Shown here in pieces: positions 22,430 through 58,796 of a stretch of 58,796 nucleotides of DNA. The notes beneath the pieces are model-generated. The model saw only the letters and a program-made list of their open reading frames with translations. It was not told the origin of the DNA and searched no databases. The stretch spans positions 1 through 58,796 of the forward strand of contig CAYTBY010000004.1 in assembly GCA_964436165.1 (NCBI GenBank), read 5' to 3'. Within the stretch, counting starts at the first letter, position 1; every line of letters starts with the position of its first letter. The position numbers and the translations under genes are program-made. The stretch is from an uncultured Candidatus Saccharibacteria bacterium (GTDB taxonomy: Bacteria; Patescibacteriota; Minisyncoccia; 2-02-FULL-40-12; GWA2-44-9).

Positions 22430-23080
22430 TTAGCTGATTACCAAGGGGGATAATTTTTTTGCTTCGAAATTGAAAAATTCTTTTAATTCTTCAACGGTGA
22501 GGGGCTTTACCATTTTGGGCAAAGCCTCAATACTTCTGACCTTAGCGAAAGAACTGCCGATAGTAAGCGGGTCTAATTTTGTATTAAACTTAGCCAGCAC
22601 TCCCTCTTTCAATTTATCAAGCGGATATTTGTGAAGCAAAAAATATAGATCAGCAAAATCTTTGGGATCAAACCGATCGGTTATTGTAATAAGCTTATTT
22701 ACCGCCATATCAAGCTCGCTATCAACATTTACACCTTCAAAATTACTCACTTTCTCGAGTTGTTTAAAGGGGTATTTCGTAAATTCCACTTTCAATTCTT
22801 CATCGGCAACAAAATAAAAAAACTGGTTACGGTCATATAATTTAGAAAACCTAAACTTTTCTGTTCCGATGATTTTTCTTAAATCTTCGGCAATTTTATG
22901 AATAAAAAGGGGGTCGATATCGTCAAAACAAAAAAAATCCAGATCATCGGATATTCGATGGTGTAAATAATAACCGGCCAGAGCTGTTCCGCCAGTCAAG
23001 TAAAAATTATTCAGTTCGTTCTTTGAGAAAACAAAATCTATGACTTGTTTCTGCCATTCTTTTAGAATTTCTTGTTCCAT
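22430..23080 (-). CDS. AbiEii/AbiGii-family nucleotidyltransferase toxin
   Basis: LTGGTALAGYYLHHRISDDLDFF, NKL...R...KDFADLY. Confidence 0.9.
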   Translation of the reverse strand: MEQEILKEWQKQVIDFVFSKNELNNFYLTGGTALAGYYLHHRISDDLDFFCFDDIDPLFIHKIAEDLRKIIGTEKFRFSKLYDRNQFFYFVADEELKVEFTKYPFKQLEKVSNFEGVNVDSELDMAVNKLITITDRFDPKDFADLYFLLHKYPLDKLKEGVLAKFNTKLDPLTIGSSFAKVRSIEALPKMVKPLTVEELKEFFNFEAKKLSPLVIS

Positions 23081-23262
23081 ATTAATAGTTCCAAAAATGC
23101 CCGTTTTTCGTCAGGAATTTTTAATTCAGGCAGATATTTTTCAAGATTTTTCCTGTCAATTTTTTCGCCGTTTAGGCCATAGTTGATCTGTCTTTCTAAA
23201 TGCCATTTCGGGTCAGCTTTTGCCTGTTTTTGGTATTCGGTTGTATCATAATCCCATGTCAT
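23062..23262 (-). CDS. Small partner (putative antitoxin) of the AbiEii protein
   Basis: Overlaps toxin start; WDY...ERQINYG; paralogue at 57736. Confidence 0.8.
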   Translation of the reverse strand: MTWDYDTTEYQKQAKADPKWHLERQINYGLNGEKIDRKNLEKYLPELKIPDEKRAFLELLIWNKKF

Positions 23263-23304
23263 AAACGGATTATACCATAGATCTGGCTGAAATAAAAAAA
23301 TTAA

Positions 23305-55200: not shown

Positions 55201-57117
55201 GATGTAATTTAATTCATGGACATTGGAGACGCCATTCTCTTTATCAAAGATAGCCACATTGCATTGTGACAGGTCATTATTGTGAACATGGGTATTATGG
55301 GCATCGTATAGCTTGATGCAGGCAGCGTTTTGATGGGTATCACTGACATAATATACATTACGAATTATGTTGTTTCGGAGAATGACGTAATCGGCTTGCT
55401 CAACACGTATCCCGTCGTAGTTGCCCGTTCCTCCGGTTGAGCCAGTACTGCCCTTATTGATTATCATATTTTCAATTATCACGTTATTGGAGCTTTGAAT
55501 GCGAATATCAGTACTTGGAGCGGTAACAAAACCATCCCAAATTATATGGTTCCTGCTTGATGTACCGATAACTGGATTATTAACCCCATTACCTCCCTGA
55601 AGATTCCTTGAAACTATCGGCTGATGACGTGAACCACTTACTGGTGTATAGGCACGAAAAGAGATGGGTTGGGAGGCAGTTCCGGAATTGGAGGGATTAA
55701 ATTTGGGATTGGGATCGCCAGATATGGCCACCGTAATATCCGTATACGTTCCGTTTTTCACACAGACTGTAGCTCCGGCGCTGATGGGAGTAAAGGTTCC
55801 TACTCCTCCGCCTTGTTCTCTTGAAGGAATACCATCAACTGCTCGGTGGAGTGTCCGCCATGGCGCTGTTTCACTAGTGCCGGCATTGGAATCACTAGCA
55901 TTGGTATGGTTCTGATCAACGTAATGAGTGCAGCTAGTCGTAGAAATTGGTGTTGGAGTTGGTGTTGGTGTTAGGGTTGGGGTGGGGGTAGGAGTAGCAG
56001 AGGGGATCGGTGTAGGAGTAGGTGTGGGAGTTAACGTAGGAGTCGGTATTGATCCCCCGCTACCCAATACATACTGCCAAGTTTCACCAGCACGAGCACT
56101 AGAAGCATTCTCGTCAGCCCATAAAATAATGCGATCTTGGAAAGGAACGTAAGTCATTTCAAAATGATGAACCTCTGGACGGGGAGTACCAGTGACATTA
56201 GTCCAAGTATTTATGTTGTAGTCATAAGTCCAGGTTGTATTGTTGTCGGCAGCAACAAGGACTGCCAACTGGCTTTGGATGTCATAGGCCATTTTTAGAA
56301 AAATACCTGTCGGCTGGCCAGTAGTTCCTCTTAGACTCCAGCAGTTAGTATTATAATCATAAGCCCAGGTTTGCATTAATCCGTTTGAACTATAGCCGGT
56401 CATCAAGACTCTATCGACGGAATATACATAAGCCATAGCGTGAGTGTGCATAGCTGGAGGACGATTACTTAAACAGCTTGGACTCATTATAGAATCTCGA
56501 TTCTGCCAGGTATTGGTTGCATCATCATAGGCCCAGGTTACGTTGTCCTGAAAATAGTATCCTCCAAATAGAATCGCCCGATCAGATTCACTGTCATAAG
56601 CCATAGCGTGACCCCAGCGGTTGCCAGGGTTAGAGACCGGATTAGGATTAGTCCAGCTATTGGTGTTAAAATTGTAAATCCAGGTTTCGTTGCTGCCACT
56701 GCCTCCTTGTAGCTGACCGCCATAAAGAATCATCCGATCACTTGTGCTATCATAGACCATCACCGCATGGCCGCGGGGGCTGGGTCTTGATGCTGGCGAC
56801 ATTTGTGACCAAATATTGGTTCCTACGTTATATATCCAGGTCTGATCAGTATAAGTGGCGCCGCCATGGTCACCAAACATAACAATCCTCTGGCTTTCGG
56901 AGTCATAAGCCAGGGCTGGGCCATCTTTATGACCTGGGGGGCTGGTTGAGTTGAGTAGGGTCCAGGTGCCGGATACTTGAGCCAAAGAAGGAGAAGAAAT
57001 ATGTGCTGTATACAAGAATCCAAAACTAATCGTCGTAGCAATTATTAGTACAAAAAAGAAATGAAACCTGTGATGATGTTCCTTAATATAGTCCGGGAGA
57101 AATTTATAAGAGGACAT
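52243..57117 (-). CDS. Large multidomain surface protein: Kelch-like propeller, right-handed beta-helix, GH16, Ig-like and C-terminal pilin-like membrane domain
   Basis: MAYDSES repeats; parallel beta-helix repeats; GH16 EIDIIE; PT linkers; C-terminal ...GNP...AKK...AIIG. Confidence 0.85.
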   Translation of the reverse strand: MSSYKFLPDYIKEHHHRFHFFFVLIIATTISFGFLYTAHISSPSLAQVSGTWTLLNSTSPPGHKDGPALAYDSESQRIVMFGDHGGATYTDQTWIYNVGTNIWSQMSPASRPSPRGHAVMVYDSTSDRMILYGGQLQGGSGSNETWIYNFNTNSWTNPNPVSNPGNRWGHAMAYDSESDRAILFGGYYFQDNVTWAYDDATNTWQNRDSIMSPSCLSNRPPAMHTHAMAYVYSVDRVLMTGYSSNGLMQTWAYDYNTNCWSLRGTTGQPTGIFLKMAYDIQSQLAVLVAADNNTTWTYDYNINTWTNVTGTPRPEVHHFEMTYVPFQDRIILWADENASSARAGETWQYVLGSGGSIPTPTLTPTPTPTPIPSATPTPTPTLTPTPTPTPISTTSCTHYVDQNHTNASDSNAGTSETAPWRTLHRAVDGIPSREQGGGVGTFTPISAGATVCVKNGTYTDITVAISGDPNPKFNPSNSGTASQPISFRAYTPVSGSRHQPIVSRNLQGGNGVNNPVIGTSSRNHIIWDGFVTAPSTDIRIQSSNNVIIENMIINKGSTGSTGGTGNYDGIRVEQADYVILRNNIIRNVYYVSDTHQNAACIKLYDAHNTHVHNNDLSQCNVAIFDKENGVSNVHELNYIHDVYSYGVLFNGFTSSRCGACPVQGNIIRNNVIANTPVGVLFNLGDASRDGNMSVYNNTMHNGRIGIAEYISLPGMQFYNNIINLNTVPNGYNNASLRFDPGSPTTTQLLSNYSNYRAPTSPYAGFFLSGGIQSLSQWQSLGFDLNSITTDPLFVGPLTGTPPATAFRLQSGSSARNAGRIGGISSGSAINMGAFITGSEIIGIGGTVISPTPTPIPTPTQTPTPTPTPTPTPTPSSLPAFSAIVLPQELLPTPPAGTVWQLTFYDEFDGSTIEGTKWNQLGDYLRQNLTVPPNWWTRDASYLNGQGQLVQRTGLDNGIPAYTSGAIDTNGKYNQKFGYFGAKIDFMMQPGNWGAFWMLSGDYTRVDNSAQDGAEIDIIEKPAIGDIINNGSGWDGYGVDHQGDSLLSNVPGISQGYHEVGLNWQPTEYRFYADGNQTFQSSGGGVSQQPGYVLVTNEVGTWGGDIAQASLPDYMYVDYVHSYYHVPITPYTYTFSASPDSAYSDAGTELNNGLFSPTDFRNSEWVGIIGQPSFNFDIQISPASGNIPNQVTLHTLRNQASGIYLPTRIELWCGLTRNMEWTLAQPVTDGLYQIILQGLPSNCQQSRLKIWNSWWTFLSEIVLGQPGIDVTPPAISITAPADGSIISGTNVLLSALATDAVGVVGVEFRFDGASGVALGPEDTTLPYSVTFDSTQFTNGSHKLTARARDSAGNRNTAVVYITVQNVANPPCTITSATWQGGSQYNVGDTATLNLIVADPVACNGQTINLNIYEEDPLNPDDLIAGPLAQIFNSSTSAVTYTYQLTPQDYIDGGNESGNEEIYFTAQVQGQSNYVQSNQVNFFNVVLPSPTPTPTPTSTIGPTPTPIPTSTIGPTPTPTPTSTSSGPIAQGIGSNFTVQSVPRIFAGLACYSVRFALIAVGIVFIYSGIAFMLSRGNPTGFANAKKAFLYAIIGGLVIYGVYTIILSISLMVTGSTILPWIPLTCS

Positions 57118-57754
57118 TTGGAAGTAATTTTTTAGCTTCAGAATTGAAAAATTCTTTTAATTCTTCAACAGAAAGTGGCTTAACCATTTTGGGCAATGCT
57201 ACAATATTTCTAACTTTAGCAAAAGAACTTCCTATAGTTAACGGGTCTAACTTAGTGTTGAATTTAATTAATACCTTGTTCTGTAGTTTTTCTAGCGAGT
57301 ATTTTTGAATAAGAAAATAGAGATCTACAAAATCTTTGGGATCAAAACGGTCAGTAATTGTAATTAGTTTATTGACGGCGATATCAAATTCGCTATCCAC
57401 CCTAGCGCCATTAAAATCATTGGCAATTTCAAGCTGTTTGAAAGGATATTTTGTAAACTCAACTTTATATTCTTCATCCCCTGCGCCATAAAAAAACTGA
57501 TTACGATCATACAATTTAGAAAATCTAGTTTTCTCAGCTCCGACTATCTTTCTTAGGTCATCTGCAATACTATGAATAAAAATTGGATCGAAATCGTCAA
57601 AAGAAAAAAAATCCAGATCATCGGATATGCGATGATACAAATAATAACCAGCCAAAGCTGTCCCGCCGGTTAGATATAAATTATTCAGATTTTTTTTCGA
57701 GAAAACAAAACCTATGGCTTTTTTCTGCCATTCTTTTAGAATTTCTTGTTCCAT
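57104..57754 (-). CDS. AbiEii/AbiGii-family nucleotidyltransferase toxin, paralogue 2
   Basis: Highly similar to 22430..23080. Confidence 0.9.
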   Translation of the reverse strand: MEQEILKEWQKKAIGFVFSKKNLNNLYLTGGTALAGYYLYHRISDDLDFFSFDDFDPIFIHSIADDLRKIVGAEKTRFSKLYDRNQFFYGAGDEEYKVEFTKYPFKQLEIANDFNGARVDSEFDIAVNKLITITDRFDPKDFVDLYFLIQKYSLEKLQNKVLIKFNTKLDPLTIGSSFAKVRNIVALPKMVKPLSVEELKEFFNSEAKKLLPNVLL

Positions 57755-57936
57755 AATAGAAGTTCGAGAAAGGCTCTTTTTTCATCTTGAATATTAAGTT
57801 CTTCGAGGTATTTCTCGAGCTGTTTTTTATCCAACTTTTCATCGCCCAAGCCATAATTTATTAACCTTTCTAAATGCCATTTTGGATCATGCTGGGCCTG
57901 CTTCTCATATTCTGTTGTATTATAATCCCAAGGCAT
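57736..57936 (-). CDS. Small partner (putative antitoxin), paralogue 2
   Basis: Similar to 23062..23262 with the same overlap. Confidence 0.8.
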   Translation of the reverse strand: MPWDYNTTEYEKQAQHDPKWHLERLINYGLGDEKLDKKQLEKYLEELNIQDEKRAFLELLLWNKKF

Positions 57937-58100
57937 AATTAGATTATATCACATTTGCCACCCAAAACAAAAAGGAAATGAAACCTGTGGTGACGTTCTT
58001 TAATAAAACTGGCCAATTGGTCTGATAAGGACACTAGTTACATTATACTAAATATTTTCTATTTTAAAAAATGTGTTAAAATACAGTAGTTATGGCGCCA

Positions 58101-58397
58101 CCCTCACACCTACTCAGCTTAATCATGTATTATTTCTATGTCTTAAAAAGTACCCAAGATAACGAACTTTATTTTGGATACACCGAAGATCTAAAGAATA
58201 GATTGTTGCAACACAATTCCGGGGAGGTTCAATCTACAAGATTGAGAAAACCTCTAATTTTGGTATACTATGAGGCATACACATCACAATCTGATGCTAA
58301 ACACAGAGAATATAGCATTAAGCTGAGAGGTAATGCCTATCTACAGCTAAAAAGAAGAATAAAGAATTGTGTTGCAAAAGCTGAGTAGGTGTGAGGG
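58101..58397 (+). mobile_element. 297-bp TIR element carrying a GIY-YIG gene, at the 5' end of a tRNA-Glu-like sequence
   Basis: Perfect 20-bp TIR ccctcacacctactcagctt / aagctgagtaggtgtgaggg; CGCCA duplicated on both sides. Confidence 0.85.
58125..58388 (+). CDS. Stand-alone GIY-YIG nuclease
   Basis: YFYVLKS...LYFGYT.DLKNRL.QHN.G...LVYYEAY...A..RE. Confidence 0.92.
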   Translation: MYYFYVLKSTQDNELYFGYTEDLKNRLLQHNSGEVQSTRLRKPLILVYYEAYTSQSDAKHREYSIKLRGNAYLQLKRRIKNCVAKAE

Positions 58398-58685
58398 CGC
58401 CATCGTCTATCGCCAGCCAGAGGCTGGTCCGCCCATGGCGGAGTTAGGACATCCCGCACATAGCTGTTCCGCTGACCGCCAAACAAAACGGGGGCGGGCT
58501 ATATGCGGGACAGGTATGCTTCCTTGCCCCGTACATAACTCCCACTAAATGGCCTCATCGTCTAGTGGTTAGGACATCGCGTTCTCATCGCGGGAACACG
58601 GGTTCGACTCCCGTTGAGGCTGCTAATGGTGGGAGTTATGTGCGGGATCATTCTAGTAACTGGGGTTCAAATCCCCATGGCGGTG
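58396..58685 (+). pseudogene. Interrupted tRNA-Glu-like sequence
   Basis: 5' part GGCGCCATCGTCTATCG[30 nt]GTTAGGACA; 3' part TCATTCTAGTAACTGGGGTTCAAATCCCCATGGCGGTG. Confidence 0.65.
58551..58622 (+). tRNA. tRNA-Glu(CTC)
   Basis: Acceptor GGCCTCA/TGAGGCT, D arm, anticodon arm TCGCG-TTCTCAT-CGCGG, T arm ACGGG-TTCGACT-CCCGT; CCA not encoded. Confidence 0.95.
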
Positions 58686-58796
58686 CAAAAGTTTTAGAAA
58701 AATTTATAAAATTTTGAAGATTATCTAAATACTCAGGATTCTGAATGATCAATTTATAAATCTTTATCAGCATAGTTCTAATCCCTCCGGCCCTGC

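Follow-up and report, generated by a model that had tools for sequence, protein, structure and literature searches.

A 297-bp inverted-repeat unit carrying a minimal GIY-YIG nuclease gene at a tRNA-Glu gene of a Candidatus Saccharibacteria bacterium, a probable mobile element

Described nuclease-and-repeat systems and the locus

SsnA of Neisseria meningitidis is a single-domain GIY-YIG nuclease of 94 amino acids whose gene is bracketed by hairpin repeats (Chenal et al., Nat Commun 2025, PMC11893778). According to the main text of that paper, SsnA binds the hairpin repeat only as single-stranded DNA (ssDNA) and cuts a few nucleotides upstream of it, mutations of Y6, Y17 and E64 abolish cleavage, and the NTS-ssnA-NTS unit is likened to an insertion sequence (IS), to IS200/IS605 and to REP/RAYT, with domestication being suggested. 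Here we describe a locus of comparable layout in an uncultured Candidatus Saccharibacteria bacterium. The window, a stretch of 58,796 nucleotides (assembly GCA_964436165.1, contig CAYTBY010000004.1), contains an element of 297 bp (58101-58397) that is bounded by 20-nt terminal inverted repeats (TIRs) and whose sole gene is predicted to encode a minimal GIY-YIG nuclease. In our estimate there is a probability of roughly 0.68 that this is a mobile element whose insertion split a tRNA-Glu(CTC) gene after nucleotide 7 and duplicated 5 bp of the target. An earlier note on this DNA had held that a GIY-YIG enzyme is not known as the sole gene of a repeat-bounded unit; this view is outdated, since NTS-ssnA-NTS, as presented in the main text of Chenal et al. 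(2025, PMC11893778), is such a unit.

The likeness to the Ssn system concerns the protein as well as the repeats. In both cases a GIY-YIG protein of about 90 amino acids, made of a single domain and devoid of a DNA-binding domain, is encoded between hairpin-forming repeats, and the catalytic residues Y6, Y17 and E64 of SsnA parallel Y5, Y16 and E62 of the element's protein. Both systems also show related short hairpins scattered in the genome and a GC-rich stem base of the 'CCCGC' type. The differences lie in the organization of the repeats and in the insertion site. Instead of two self-contained palindromes, the element has flanks that together make up a single long hairpin, and its repeat has no further copies in the genome. 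Its 5-bp target duplication, its empty sites and its targeting of tRNA 5' ends are unreported for Ssn in the main text of the Ssn paper, where the terms 'tRNA', 'Patescibacteria' and 'Candidate Phyla' are absent (PMC11893778). The published pattern of the Ssn repeat motif (SRM) gave one match in the genome (1-3 in five Markov-1 controls) and none within 500 bp of the 8 GIY-YIG genes. Because the SRM pattern is absent and the protein is at most a candidate member of CDD cd10448, the element is not filed here as an Ssn member despite its Ssn-like layout; judged from sequence matches, the nearest solved proteins are those of the UPF0213 type.

In rRNA genes of the Candidate Phyla Radiation, GIY-YIG open reading frames (ORFs) have been reported in insertions that are not introns and were judged to lie outside homing (Tsurumaki et al., J Bacteriol 2024, PMC11270868). 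The locus described here resembles these in the bacterial group, in the small GIY-YIG ORF associated with stable-RNA genes and in the absence of a group I or group II intron. It differs in that the main text of that report deals with rRNA only and proposes no transposon; the terms 'inverted repeat', 'palindrom', 'hairpin' and 'tRNA gene' are absent from it (PMC11270868). The phage T4 gene segB lies in the T4 tRNA gene cluster (PMC2330249). Like the element, it is a stand-alone GIY-YIG gene beside tRNA genes that is present or absent between relatives. Genes of the Seg type have no terminal inverted repeats, target duplication or miniature derivatives, unlike the element. Seg enzymes are larger and, like I-TevI-type enzymes, possess DNA-binding domains. 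By its architecture the element is not a homing endonuclease of the Seg or I-TevI type, the GIY-YIG domain filling its 87-residue protein.

With IS and miniature inverted-repeat transposable elements (MITEs), as with IS200/IS605 and REP/RAYT, the element and its relatives share TIRs, a target duplication of fixed length, ORF-less miniatures in other genomes, empty sites and a proposed recognition of ssDNA hairpins. The difference is the lack of a DDE, serine, tyrosine or HUH (Y1) transposase, the sole gene being that of a hydrolytic nuclease. To our knowledge the smallest insertion sequences measure about 700 bp, and the element is less than half that size. It has the hallmarks of a TIR transposon apart from a known transposase. 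No account of a TIR-bounded GIY-YIG element at tRNA genes was found in the literature covered, which excluded most subscription journals and supplements.

Structure of the element, its gene and its target

The 20-bp repeats, the 87-codon ORF and its stop codon within the right repeat were all found where the earlier note had placed them. The heptamer GGCGCCA, which includes the duplicated CGCCA, is read directly on either side of the element, whose arms are separated by 257 nt. The final GG of the right arm (58396-58397) doubles as nucleotides 1 and 2 of the downstream tRNA sequence, so that the tRNA 5' end is rebuilt downstream of the insertion. The ungapped flanking-repeat score is 20 here, whereas none of 250 random 261-bp windows of this genome scored above 13, the highest value among them; with gapped scoring 3 of 300 random windows reached 13. 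Folded as ssDNA, the element reached -63.2 kcal/mol against -28.1 +/- 3.45 kcal/mol for shuffled sequences (z = -10.2). A unitig from a separate assembly of a public run, which may be the source sample of the window, spans 57726-58593 with zero differences; the junctions of the element are therefore not an assembly artefact.

The earlier note had seen neither a transposase nor an intron core inside the element, and this was confirmed. No gene other than the 87-aa ORF lies inside the inverted repeat, and an Rfam search of 57800-58796 at E-values up to 10 revealed no intron or other RNA family except the tRNA-Glu at 58551-58622. A ribozyme core was not found, and the element does not lie inside a mature RNA as an intron or an RNase III-type intervening sequence does. 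It is located 5' of the rebuilt tRNA start, where normal 5' processing would remove it.

Upstream of the left heptamer lies the extended -10-like motif TGTGTTAAAAT. Three close relatives (L052, L053 and L060) carry the same TGnGTTAAAAT motif at a similar upstream distance, and TGATAAAAT precedes the empty site of genome G005 described below. A consensus promoter scan did not list TGTGTTAAAAT because a good -35 is lacking. The motif is presumed to be the tRNA promoter, which may now drive the element too. Its conservation upstream suggests that the nuclease gene is transcribed from the tRNA promoter and then removed along with the 5' leader; transcription from the old promoter through the stranded first seven tRNA bases would run into the nuclease gene, which would be expressed within the pre-tRNA leader.

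The ORF matched the Pfam profile PF01541 with an E-value of 1.5e-14 (54.4 bits, cut-off 22.6) over profile positions 1-74 of 78. This was the only Pfam domain and it nearly fills the protein (residues 1-71 of 87). Sequence matches in the PDB were the UPF0213 proteins 1ywl (E 1.3e-8) and 1zg2 (E 2.3e-6), whereas a search of the 87-aa protein against the NCBIfam profiles gave no family match. A subfamily alignment was made from the window element and 20 relatives (n = 21; the decayed L017 and L070 and the cut L077 were left out). Tyr5 (FYV), Tyr16 (LYFG), Arg26, His30-Asn31 and Glu62 (HRE) are conserved across the 21 translations. Judged by profile and catalytic residues, the ORF belongs to the GIY-YIG nuclease superfamily. 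Stand-alone prokaryotic Slx1-like domains have been described as the minimal GIY-YIG form (Dunin-Horkawicz et al., PMC1564403).

The median ratio of non-synonymous to synonymous substitution rates (dN/dS) was 0.09 for 85 pairs of 18 intact copies, indicating purifying selection on the ORF. Premature stops occurred in 2 of the 21 subfamily copies, as expected for a selfish gene. A second, inner stem pairs the codons of the catalytic QHN with the C-terminal KNCVA codons beside the right arm. Its 12-nt core is invariant or nearly so across the 21 sequences, synonymous sites included, so that constraint acts at the nucleotide level.

The 17 nt after the right arm (GGCGCCATCGTCTATCG) begin an intact tRNA-Glu(ctc) in the closest relatives (L052, L053 and L060). 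The 3' remnant of the same tRNA in the window extends from the end of the anticodon loop through the 3' anticodon stem, variable loop and T arm to the 3' acceptor strand, where C71 is replaced by G. Neither ARAGORN nor Rfam calls a tRNA starting at the GG of the element; the only tRNA called by ARAGORN in the window is the one at 58551-58623. The proposed location at a tRNA 5' end held in so far as GG rebuilds the tRNA start, but had to be revised for the tRNA itself, which is disrupted and uncalled by both programs. Comparison with relatives identifies the target as a tRNA-Glu(CTC) gene that was later wrecked and is now a pseudogene. The second tRNA-Glu(CTC), different from the target, functionally replaces this broken older gene. 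The repeat enclosing it ends in CCCGCAC, a motif common to the hairpin family of the genome, and a contig of a different study spans 58453-58653 with 10 differences, which means that the tRNA-Glu-carrying module also exists elsewhere. The window ends at the contig end and is continued in contig C26 with an overlap of 55 bp. The coordinates of all features are listed in Table 1.

Table 1. Positions of the features of the element, its target and the Y1 genes of the genome
Feature	Position	Strand	Basis or remark
Extended -10-like motif TGTGTTAAAAT, 11 nt 5' of left GGCGCCA	58072..58082	+	direct reading
Left copy of tRNA nucleotides 1-7 (GGCGCCA)	58094..58100	+	direct reading and repeat finder
Left target-site duplication CGCCA, preceded by GG (58094-58095)	58096-58100	+	repeat finder
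Left terminal inverted repeat, 20 nt	58101..58120	+	100% complementary to right arm
ORF, 87 aa plus TAG (58386-58388, within right arm)	58125..58388	+	predicted single-domain GIY-YIG nuclease, Slx1/UPF0213/Ssn-like minimal type
Inner stem, left arm, on codons of the catalytic LQHNS motif	58206..58219	+	14 nt, 100% complementary
Inner stem, right arm, codons KNCVAK, contiguous with right terminal repeat	58364..58377	+	repeat finder
Right terminal inverted repeat, 20 nt, holds stop codon	58378..58397	+	repeat finder
5' part (nucleotides 1-26) of disrupted target tRNA-Glu(CTC)	58396..58451	+	comparison with L052, L053, L060, L047
Right target-site duplication CGCCA (tRNA nucleotides 3-7)	58398..58402	+	repeat finder
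GC-rich double-hairpin insert, 30 nt, in D loop of broken tRNA-Glu	58413-58442	+	direct repeats; comparison with relatives
Nested hairpin inserts replacing 5' anticodon stem and anticodon	58452..58648	+	repeat finder, ARAGORN, Rfam
Hairpin within nested inserts	58452-58510	+	repeat finder
18-bp inverted repeat around second tRNA-Glu(CTC)	58528-58545 / 58629-58646	+	repeat finder
Intact second tRNA-Glu(CTC)	58551-58623	+	ARAGORN; Rfam tRNA 58.4 bits
3' remnant of target tRNA-Glu(CTC)	58647..58684	+	85-93% matches to 3' halves of relatives' tRNA-Glu(ctc)
Y1 (IS200/RAYT-like) transposase homologues, 227-269 codons	C18:12937-13620, C5:17055-17801, C35:7820-8599, C2:45019-45828, C3:47721-48416		

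Other explanations of the broken tRNA were considered and rejected. A functional split or intron-bearing outer tRNA was discarded, as the sequence left once the inserts are taken out lacks an anticodon and the 5' strand of its stem and is mutated at position 71. For a tmRNA, RNase P RNA or large ornate RNA at 58396-58690 there was no Rfam support, and a mascRNA-like match (27 bits, gathering threshold 42.5) corresponded just to the T arm and acceptor of the tRNA remnant. A tRNA-Thr(GGT)-like 5' half that ends at the anticodon was seen behind two related elements, at L051 (G032:C4, 190-340, reverse strand) and at L072 (560-760). An intact tRNA-Thr(ggt) is located 5 nt past this half in G032; at L072 the half is followed by a long structured stretch that might be a group I intron. 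ARAGORN detected 40 tRNA genes and a tmRNA gene in the whole genome of the window, with no tRNA-Asn, tRNA-Phe or tRNA-Tyr among them; as tRNA genes here often carry inserts, the uncalled genes may be present in an interrupted form.

Homologous loci, empty sites and miniatures

Homologous loci were collected from species-representative genomes (22) and from metagenomes (73), and these 95 loci were reduced to 67 non-redundant ones at 97% identity. The earlier note had expected homologues to carry flanking inverted repeats and to be associated with tRNA genes, and both expectations were borne out. A flanking inverted repeat with a gapped score of at least 13, the value reached by 3 of the 300 random windows, was found at 46 of the 67 loci, and 35 of the 67 are tRNA-adjacent compared with about 0.7% expected. 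At 20 loci the tRNA start called by ARAGORN lies 1-4 nt inside the right arm, that is, the element abuts tRNA nucleotide 1. These flush tRNAs represent seven anticodons: Glu(ctc) and Glu(ttc) with 6 loci each, Arg(gcg), Arg(tcg) and Val(gac) with 2 each, and Ala(tgc) and Pro(cgg) with 1 each. Among the 23 relatives that are at least 69% identical, 21 carry the flanking repeat, the exceptions being L070 with a decayed left end and L077, which is cut by a contig end. The association of gene and repeat persists in relatives with protein identities as high as 90% and as low as about 45%, and it spans several candidate phyla. Repeat-bounded relatives were also found in 16S rRNA-like flanks around helix 6 (L020/L092, L107-L110) and in RNase P RNA-like flanks (L106; L015/L086), which we presume to be such from the conserved motifs recognised in them.

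Within the 21-member alignment the repeat cores CTCACACCTA and TAGGTGTGAG show no variation. Further inward the arms differ between members yet stay complementary: 99.5% of the cells are paired and 8 of the 20 pairs have changed on both sides. None of 500 shuffles reached the observed value, and slid controls paired at 33-44%. The 5 nt flanking the arms form an exact repeat in 13 of the 21 members and a repeat with one mismatch in another 5. The duplicated pentamers (CGCCA, CCCCA, CCCCG, CCTCG, CCCTG and CGTTG) vary with the tRNA and each equals its nucleotides 3-7, from which it follows that the duplication derives from the target. The outermost two bases of the arms likewise follow the tRNA start, with CC..GG at tRNAs starting with GG and GC..GC at those starting with GC; the match of the right-arm end to the tRNA start is attributed to selection for a working tRNA. 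In the gene tree, two supported sister pairs (98/96 and 94/90) unite elements at tRNA-Glu(ttc) and tRNA-Glu(ctc), which speaks for a switch of target.

Empty alleles, which the earlier note had also anticipated, were found in two genomes. G005, of the same genus, carries the same broken tRNA locus at about 85% identity, including the same anticodon-region hairpin, with a single GGTGCCA directly behind the extended -10-like motif and without the element; in G005 (L037, reverse strand) a different hairpin insert occupies about the same place in the D loop. G024, of the same family, possesses an intact tRNA-Glu(ctc) with identical first 14 nt and no element. Both empty sites, L037 and L047, show one copy only of tRNA nucleotides 1-7.

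Full-length elements with exact cores were detected in 5 of the 105 genomes of the order. Hairpins of 56-127 bp that have the same 10-nt cores and no ORF occurred at 12 sites in 9 of the 105 genomes; reversed-pattern controls gave 0 in both searches. Four of the 11 miniature loci scanned with ARAGORN abut a tRNA 5' end (Ala cgc, Gly tcc, Glu ctc and Leu cag). At L017, one tRNA-Glu is preceded by a tandem of a copy with a decayed ORF and a 62-bp miniature, an arrangement to be expected were the rebuilt site open to further insertion. Decayed copies were L017, L069, L070 and L076.

These data bear on the view that the gene is a domesticated host nuclease of the Ssn type, which is not mobile and whose repeats regulate it or mark DNA for restriction in natural transformation. 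Its size, fold and repeat-gene-repeat layout do match those of SsnA as given in the main text of PMC11893778, and the strong purifying selection on the ORF would fit such a role. Against this stand the patchy distribution within the order, the empty sites in close kin and the decayed copies, as well as the lack of a cognate repeat population and of the SRM motif in the genome. To insert into stable-RNA genes and create duplications is how a selfish element behaves. We therefore give very little credence to domestication.

The genome of the window (1.15 Mb, 58 contigs) contains seven significant GIY-YIG copies of this size, five of which have a tRNA gene no more than about 200 bp away. Inverted repeats closely flank three copies: the window element (20 nt), C1:4259-4534 (20 nt) and C9:28174-28416 (27 nt). 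Partial tRNA duplications were sought beside the paralogues. The one at the C15 paralogue holds (13 nt exact) and the one at C32 is borderline, with collinear pieces of nucleotides 1-15 and 16-26 scoring 10-11 against a null maximum of 10.5, whereas those on C25 and C43 were dropped, their scores not exceeding shuffled controls. Among distant relatives, a GIY-YIG gene devoid of repeats was seen between a partial tRNA copy and an intact tRNA at L115, L119, L030, L124, L105, L118 and L031. The partial copies comprise 13-38 nt of the 5' part, sometimes together with upstream bases, or 19-34 nt of the 3' part, and at several of these loci the GIY-YIG stop codon falls within the first bases of the tRNA.

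The main competing explanation is a free-standing homing endonuclease gene of the T4 SegB type, whose product would cut empty tRNA genes and which would be copied in by recombinational repair. The inverted repeat would then be a transcript-insulating or processing stem, removed for instance from the pre-tRNA leader, or a mask of the cleavage site, and not a transposon end. GIY-YIG is a classic homing endonuclease fold, found next to tRNA genes in the case of SegB (PMC2330249). Reoccupation of the same tRNA species (12 of the 20 flush sites are tRNA-Glu), the single copy of the subfamily per genome and the presence of a broken tRNA beside an intact replacement in this window, in G032 and at L115, L118 and L119 would also suit homing, and the long tRNA 5' or 3' duplications of the repeat-less relatives resemble repair with co-conversion. 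Homing makes no target-site duplication, yet a 5-bp repeat specific to the target is present in 18 of the 21 members of the subfamily. The 87-aa protein lacks the DNA-binding domain of Seg and I-TevI-type enzymes, and homing of a gene does not predict ORF-less miniatures with the same ends at the 5' ends of other tRNA species. Moreover, the rebuilt tRNA retains its full sequence, so that the recognition site would need to extend into variable upstream DNA. On balance, homing is considered an unlikely explanation of the subfamily, and a mobile TIR element remains the preferred one.

Genome hairpins, proposed mechanism and meaning

The earlier proposal also saw in the element a candidate mobiliser of the hairpin inserts across the window. 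The genome contains 555 hairpins with perfect stems of at least 11 bp, 21 of which begin with CCCNCAC (0 for three control motifs). Among the CCCNCAC hairpins, loop size is greatest in two GIY-YIG elements, those on C4 and C1, and a third hairpin encloses the tRNA-Glu; the ends of the C1 element resemble those around the tRNA-Glu and a 23-nt palindrome on C5. This sharing fits a relationship between autonomous and non-autonomous units, though only the 7-nt end motif is common. Inspection of the flanks of the CCCNCAC hairpins in the genome revealed no general 5-bp duplication. The mobiliser proposal is thus supported only in part: in other genomes the ORF-less miniatures with exact ends and tRNA targets speak for it; for this genome it is weakened by the lack of a second repeat copy, by the restriction of the shared motif to 21 of 555 hairpins and by the presence of five Y1 homologues.

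At C31:7038-7100 a 61-nt hairpin with the end motif CCCGCAC was observed directly before GAGGAAAGTC, which we take to be the P4 strand of RNase P RNA, and at L106 (around 681-985) a GIY-YIG element lies at the equivalent place; the P3 helix of this RNA may be the insertion site of both. Just upstream of the window element, on the minus strand (57104-57936), is a gene for an AbiEii-type nucleotidyltransferase toxin (PF08843, E 6e-13) that has a 77%-identical copy at 22755-23277 of the window and, together with a small upstream ORF, probably constitutes a type IV toxin-antitoxin pair.

The Y1 homologues raise the further alternative that the unit is a non-autonomous hairpin of the MITE or REP type moved in trans, for example by them, with the GIY-YIG ORF as a passenger in the loop. 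Besides the five homologues, all above the Pfam cut-off, this explanation can draw on the 555 hairpins, on CCCNCAC-class hairpins that carry other cargo such as the tRNA-Glu at 58528-58646, and on the 7 of 9 miniature-bearing genomes that lack a full-length element with exact cores. However, the gene and the repeat stay together over the whole range of identities and phyla given above, and the right arm and the inner stem, both invariant, incorporate the stop codon and the C-terminal codons, which argues for co-evolution and not for a passenger. The Y1 genes are flanked by palindromes quite different from the element ends; in two of them the gene's 5' end and the sequence just upstream of it hold 22-nt palindromes of a separate kind, and the Y1 genes may represent a second hairpin-based system in the genome. 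Profile searches of the genome with DDE_Tnp_1 and rve gave 0 matches each, and Phage_integrase gave 1 (one tyrosine recombinase). Movement in trans of a mere passenger is thus improbable, and a repeat-bounded element that belongs with its nuclease gene is favoured.

That the five Y1_Tnp homologues could act on hairpins in trans is one of several observations that weigh against the mobility of the element as proposed here. Three of the 21 subfamily members deviate in their duplication (the repeat measures 7 bp in L065 and 4 bp in L014 and is lacking in L073), and no flanking duplication was seen at L015, L016, L018 and L032, which lie outside the tRNA-targeting subfamily. Distant relatives without terminal repeats carry 13-38-nt duplications of tRNA parts, and these look more like products of homing or recombination than of cut-and-paste. 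The gene tree is mostly unresolved, 15 of its 18 inner branches being open, and the SRM is absent around the element. In its own genome the repeat occurs only as the two arms, with no further copy and no ORF-less copy, so that there is no sign of recent transposition in this genome; in addition, no contig of four public runs skips the element, although contigs alone cannot reveal rare forms. The main difficulty is enzymatic. GIY-YIG enzymes hydrolyse DNA, and we know of no covalent intermediates or strand transfer among them; the rejoining step is therefore missing from the model.

A mobile, tRNA-targeting element whose only gene is that of a GIY-YIG nuclease is nevertheless well supported by the sequence comparisons, and with the TIRs, target-specific duplications, empty sites and tRNA 5' ends found across relatives, the earlier note's core reading of a TIR-bounded element aimed at tRNA 5' ends stands. 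The family is spread through Patescibacteria, at tRNA 5' ends and in the genes of 16S rRNA (helix 6) and RNase P RNA, together with ORF-less miniatures.

By analogy with the Ssn nucleases, a hairpin-nicking mechanism is most likely. The element would become single-stranded at the replication fork or on the displaced strand of heavily transcribed stable-RNA genes, and its arms would pair into a long hairpin. The nuclease would recognise the conserved base of this hairpin (CTCACACCTA / TAGGTGTGAG) and cut a few bases outside it, and host repair or ligation might then complete excision or copying as well as insertion at a target cut with a 5-nt stagger. Both the action on ssDNA and the rejoining of strands are conjectural in this scheme, and we infer that the nuclease itself mobilises the element. 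The preference for stable-RNA genes could reflect the single-stranded, structured non-template DNA of heavily transcribed genes; equally, it could reflect survival only where the hairpin is harmless. In its strongest form, the proposal would make the 297-bp unit a fully autonomous DNA transposon of a new class, in which an 87-residue nuclease acting on the ssDNA hairpin of its own ends is the sole element-encoded function, moves the miniatures too, generates the 5-bp duplications and prefers the displaced strand. This we advance tentatively, as possible but somewhat doubtful.

The element is placed here with the known units of a nuclease and hairpin repeats, with a substantial chance that it represents a new class of transposon. 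If the nuclease moves the element, the lower size limit of autonomous mobile elements would fall below 300 bp, and a fifth enzyme type would join the known transposases, with the first GIY-YIG hydrolase used as a transposase; an autonomous element would be the smallest self-sufficient transposon known. The questions raised by Ssn, namely the role of such proteins outside Neisseria and whether a repeat-gene-repeat unit can be mobile, gain a directly testable case. Nucleases this small, with a hairpin-defined specificity that varies between lineages, would be of practical interest as ssDNA tools. For the ultra-small bacteria themselves, such an element would account for the origin of the many hairpin inserts in their genes and stable-RNA genes, as well as for the frequent interruption of tRNA, rRNA and RNase P RNA genes in these organisms and the failure of tRNA finders to detect some of them.

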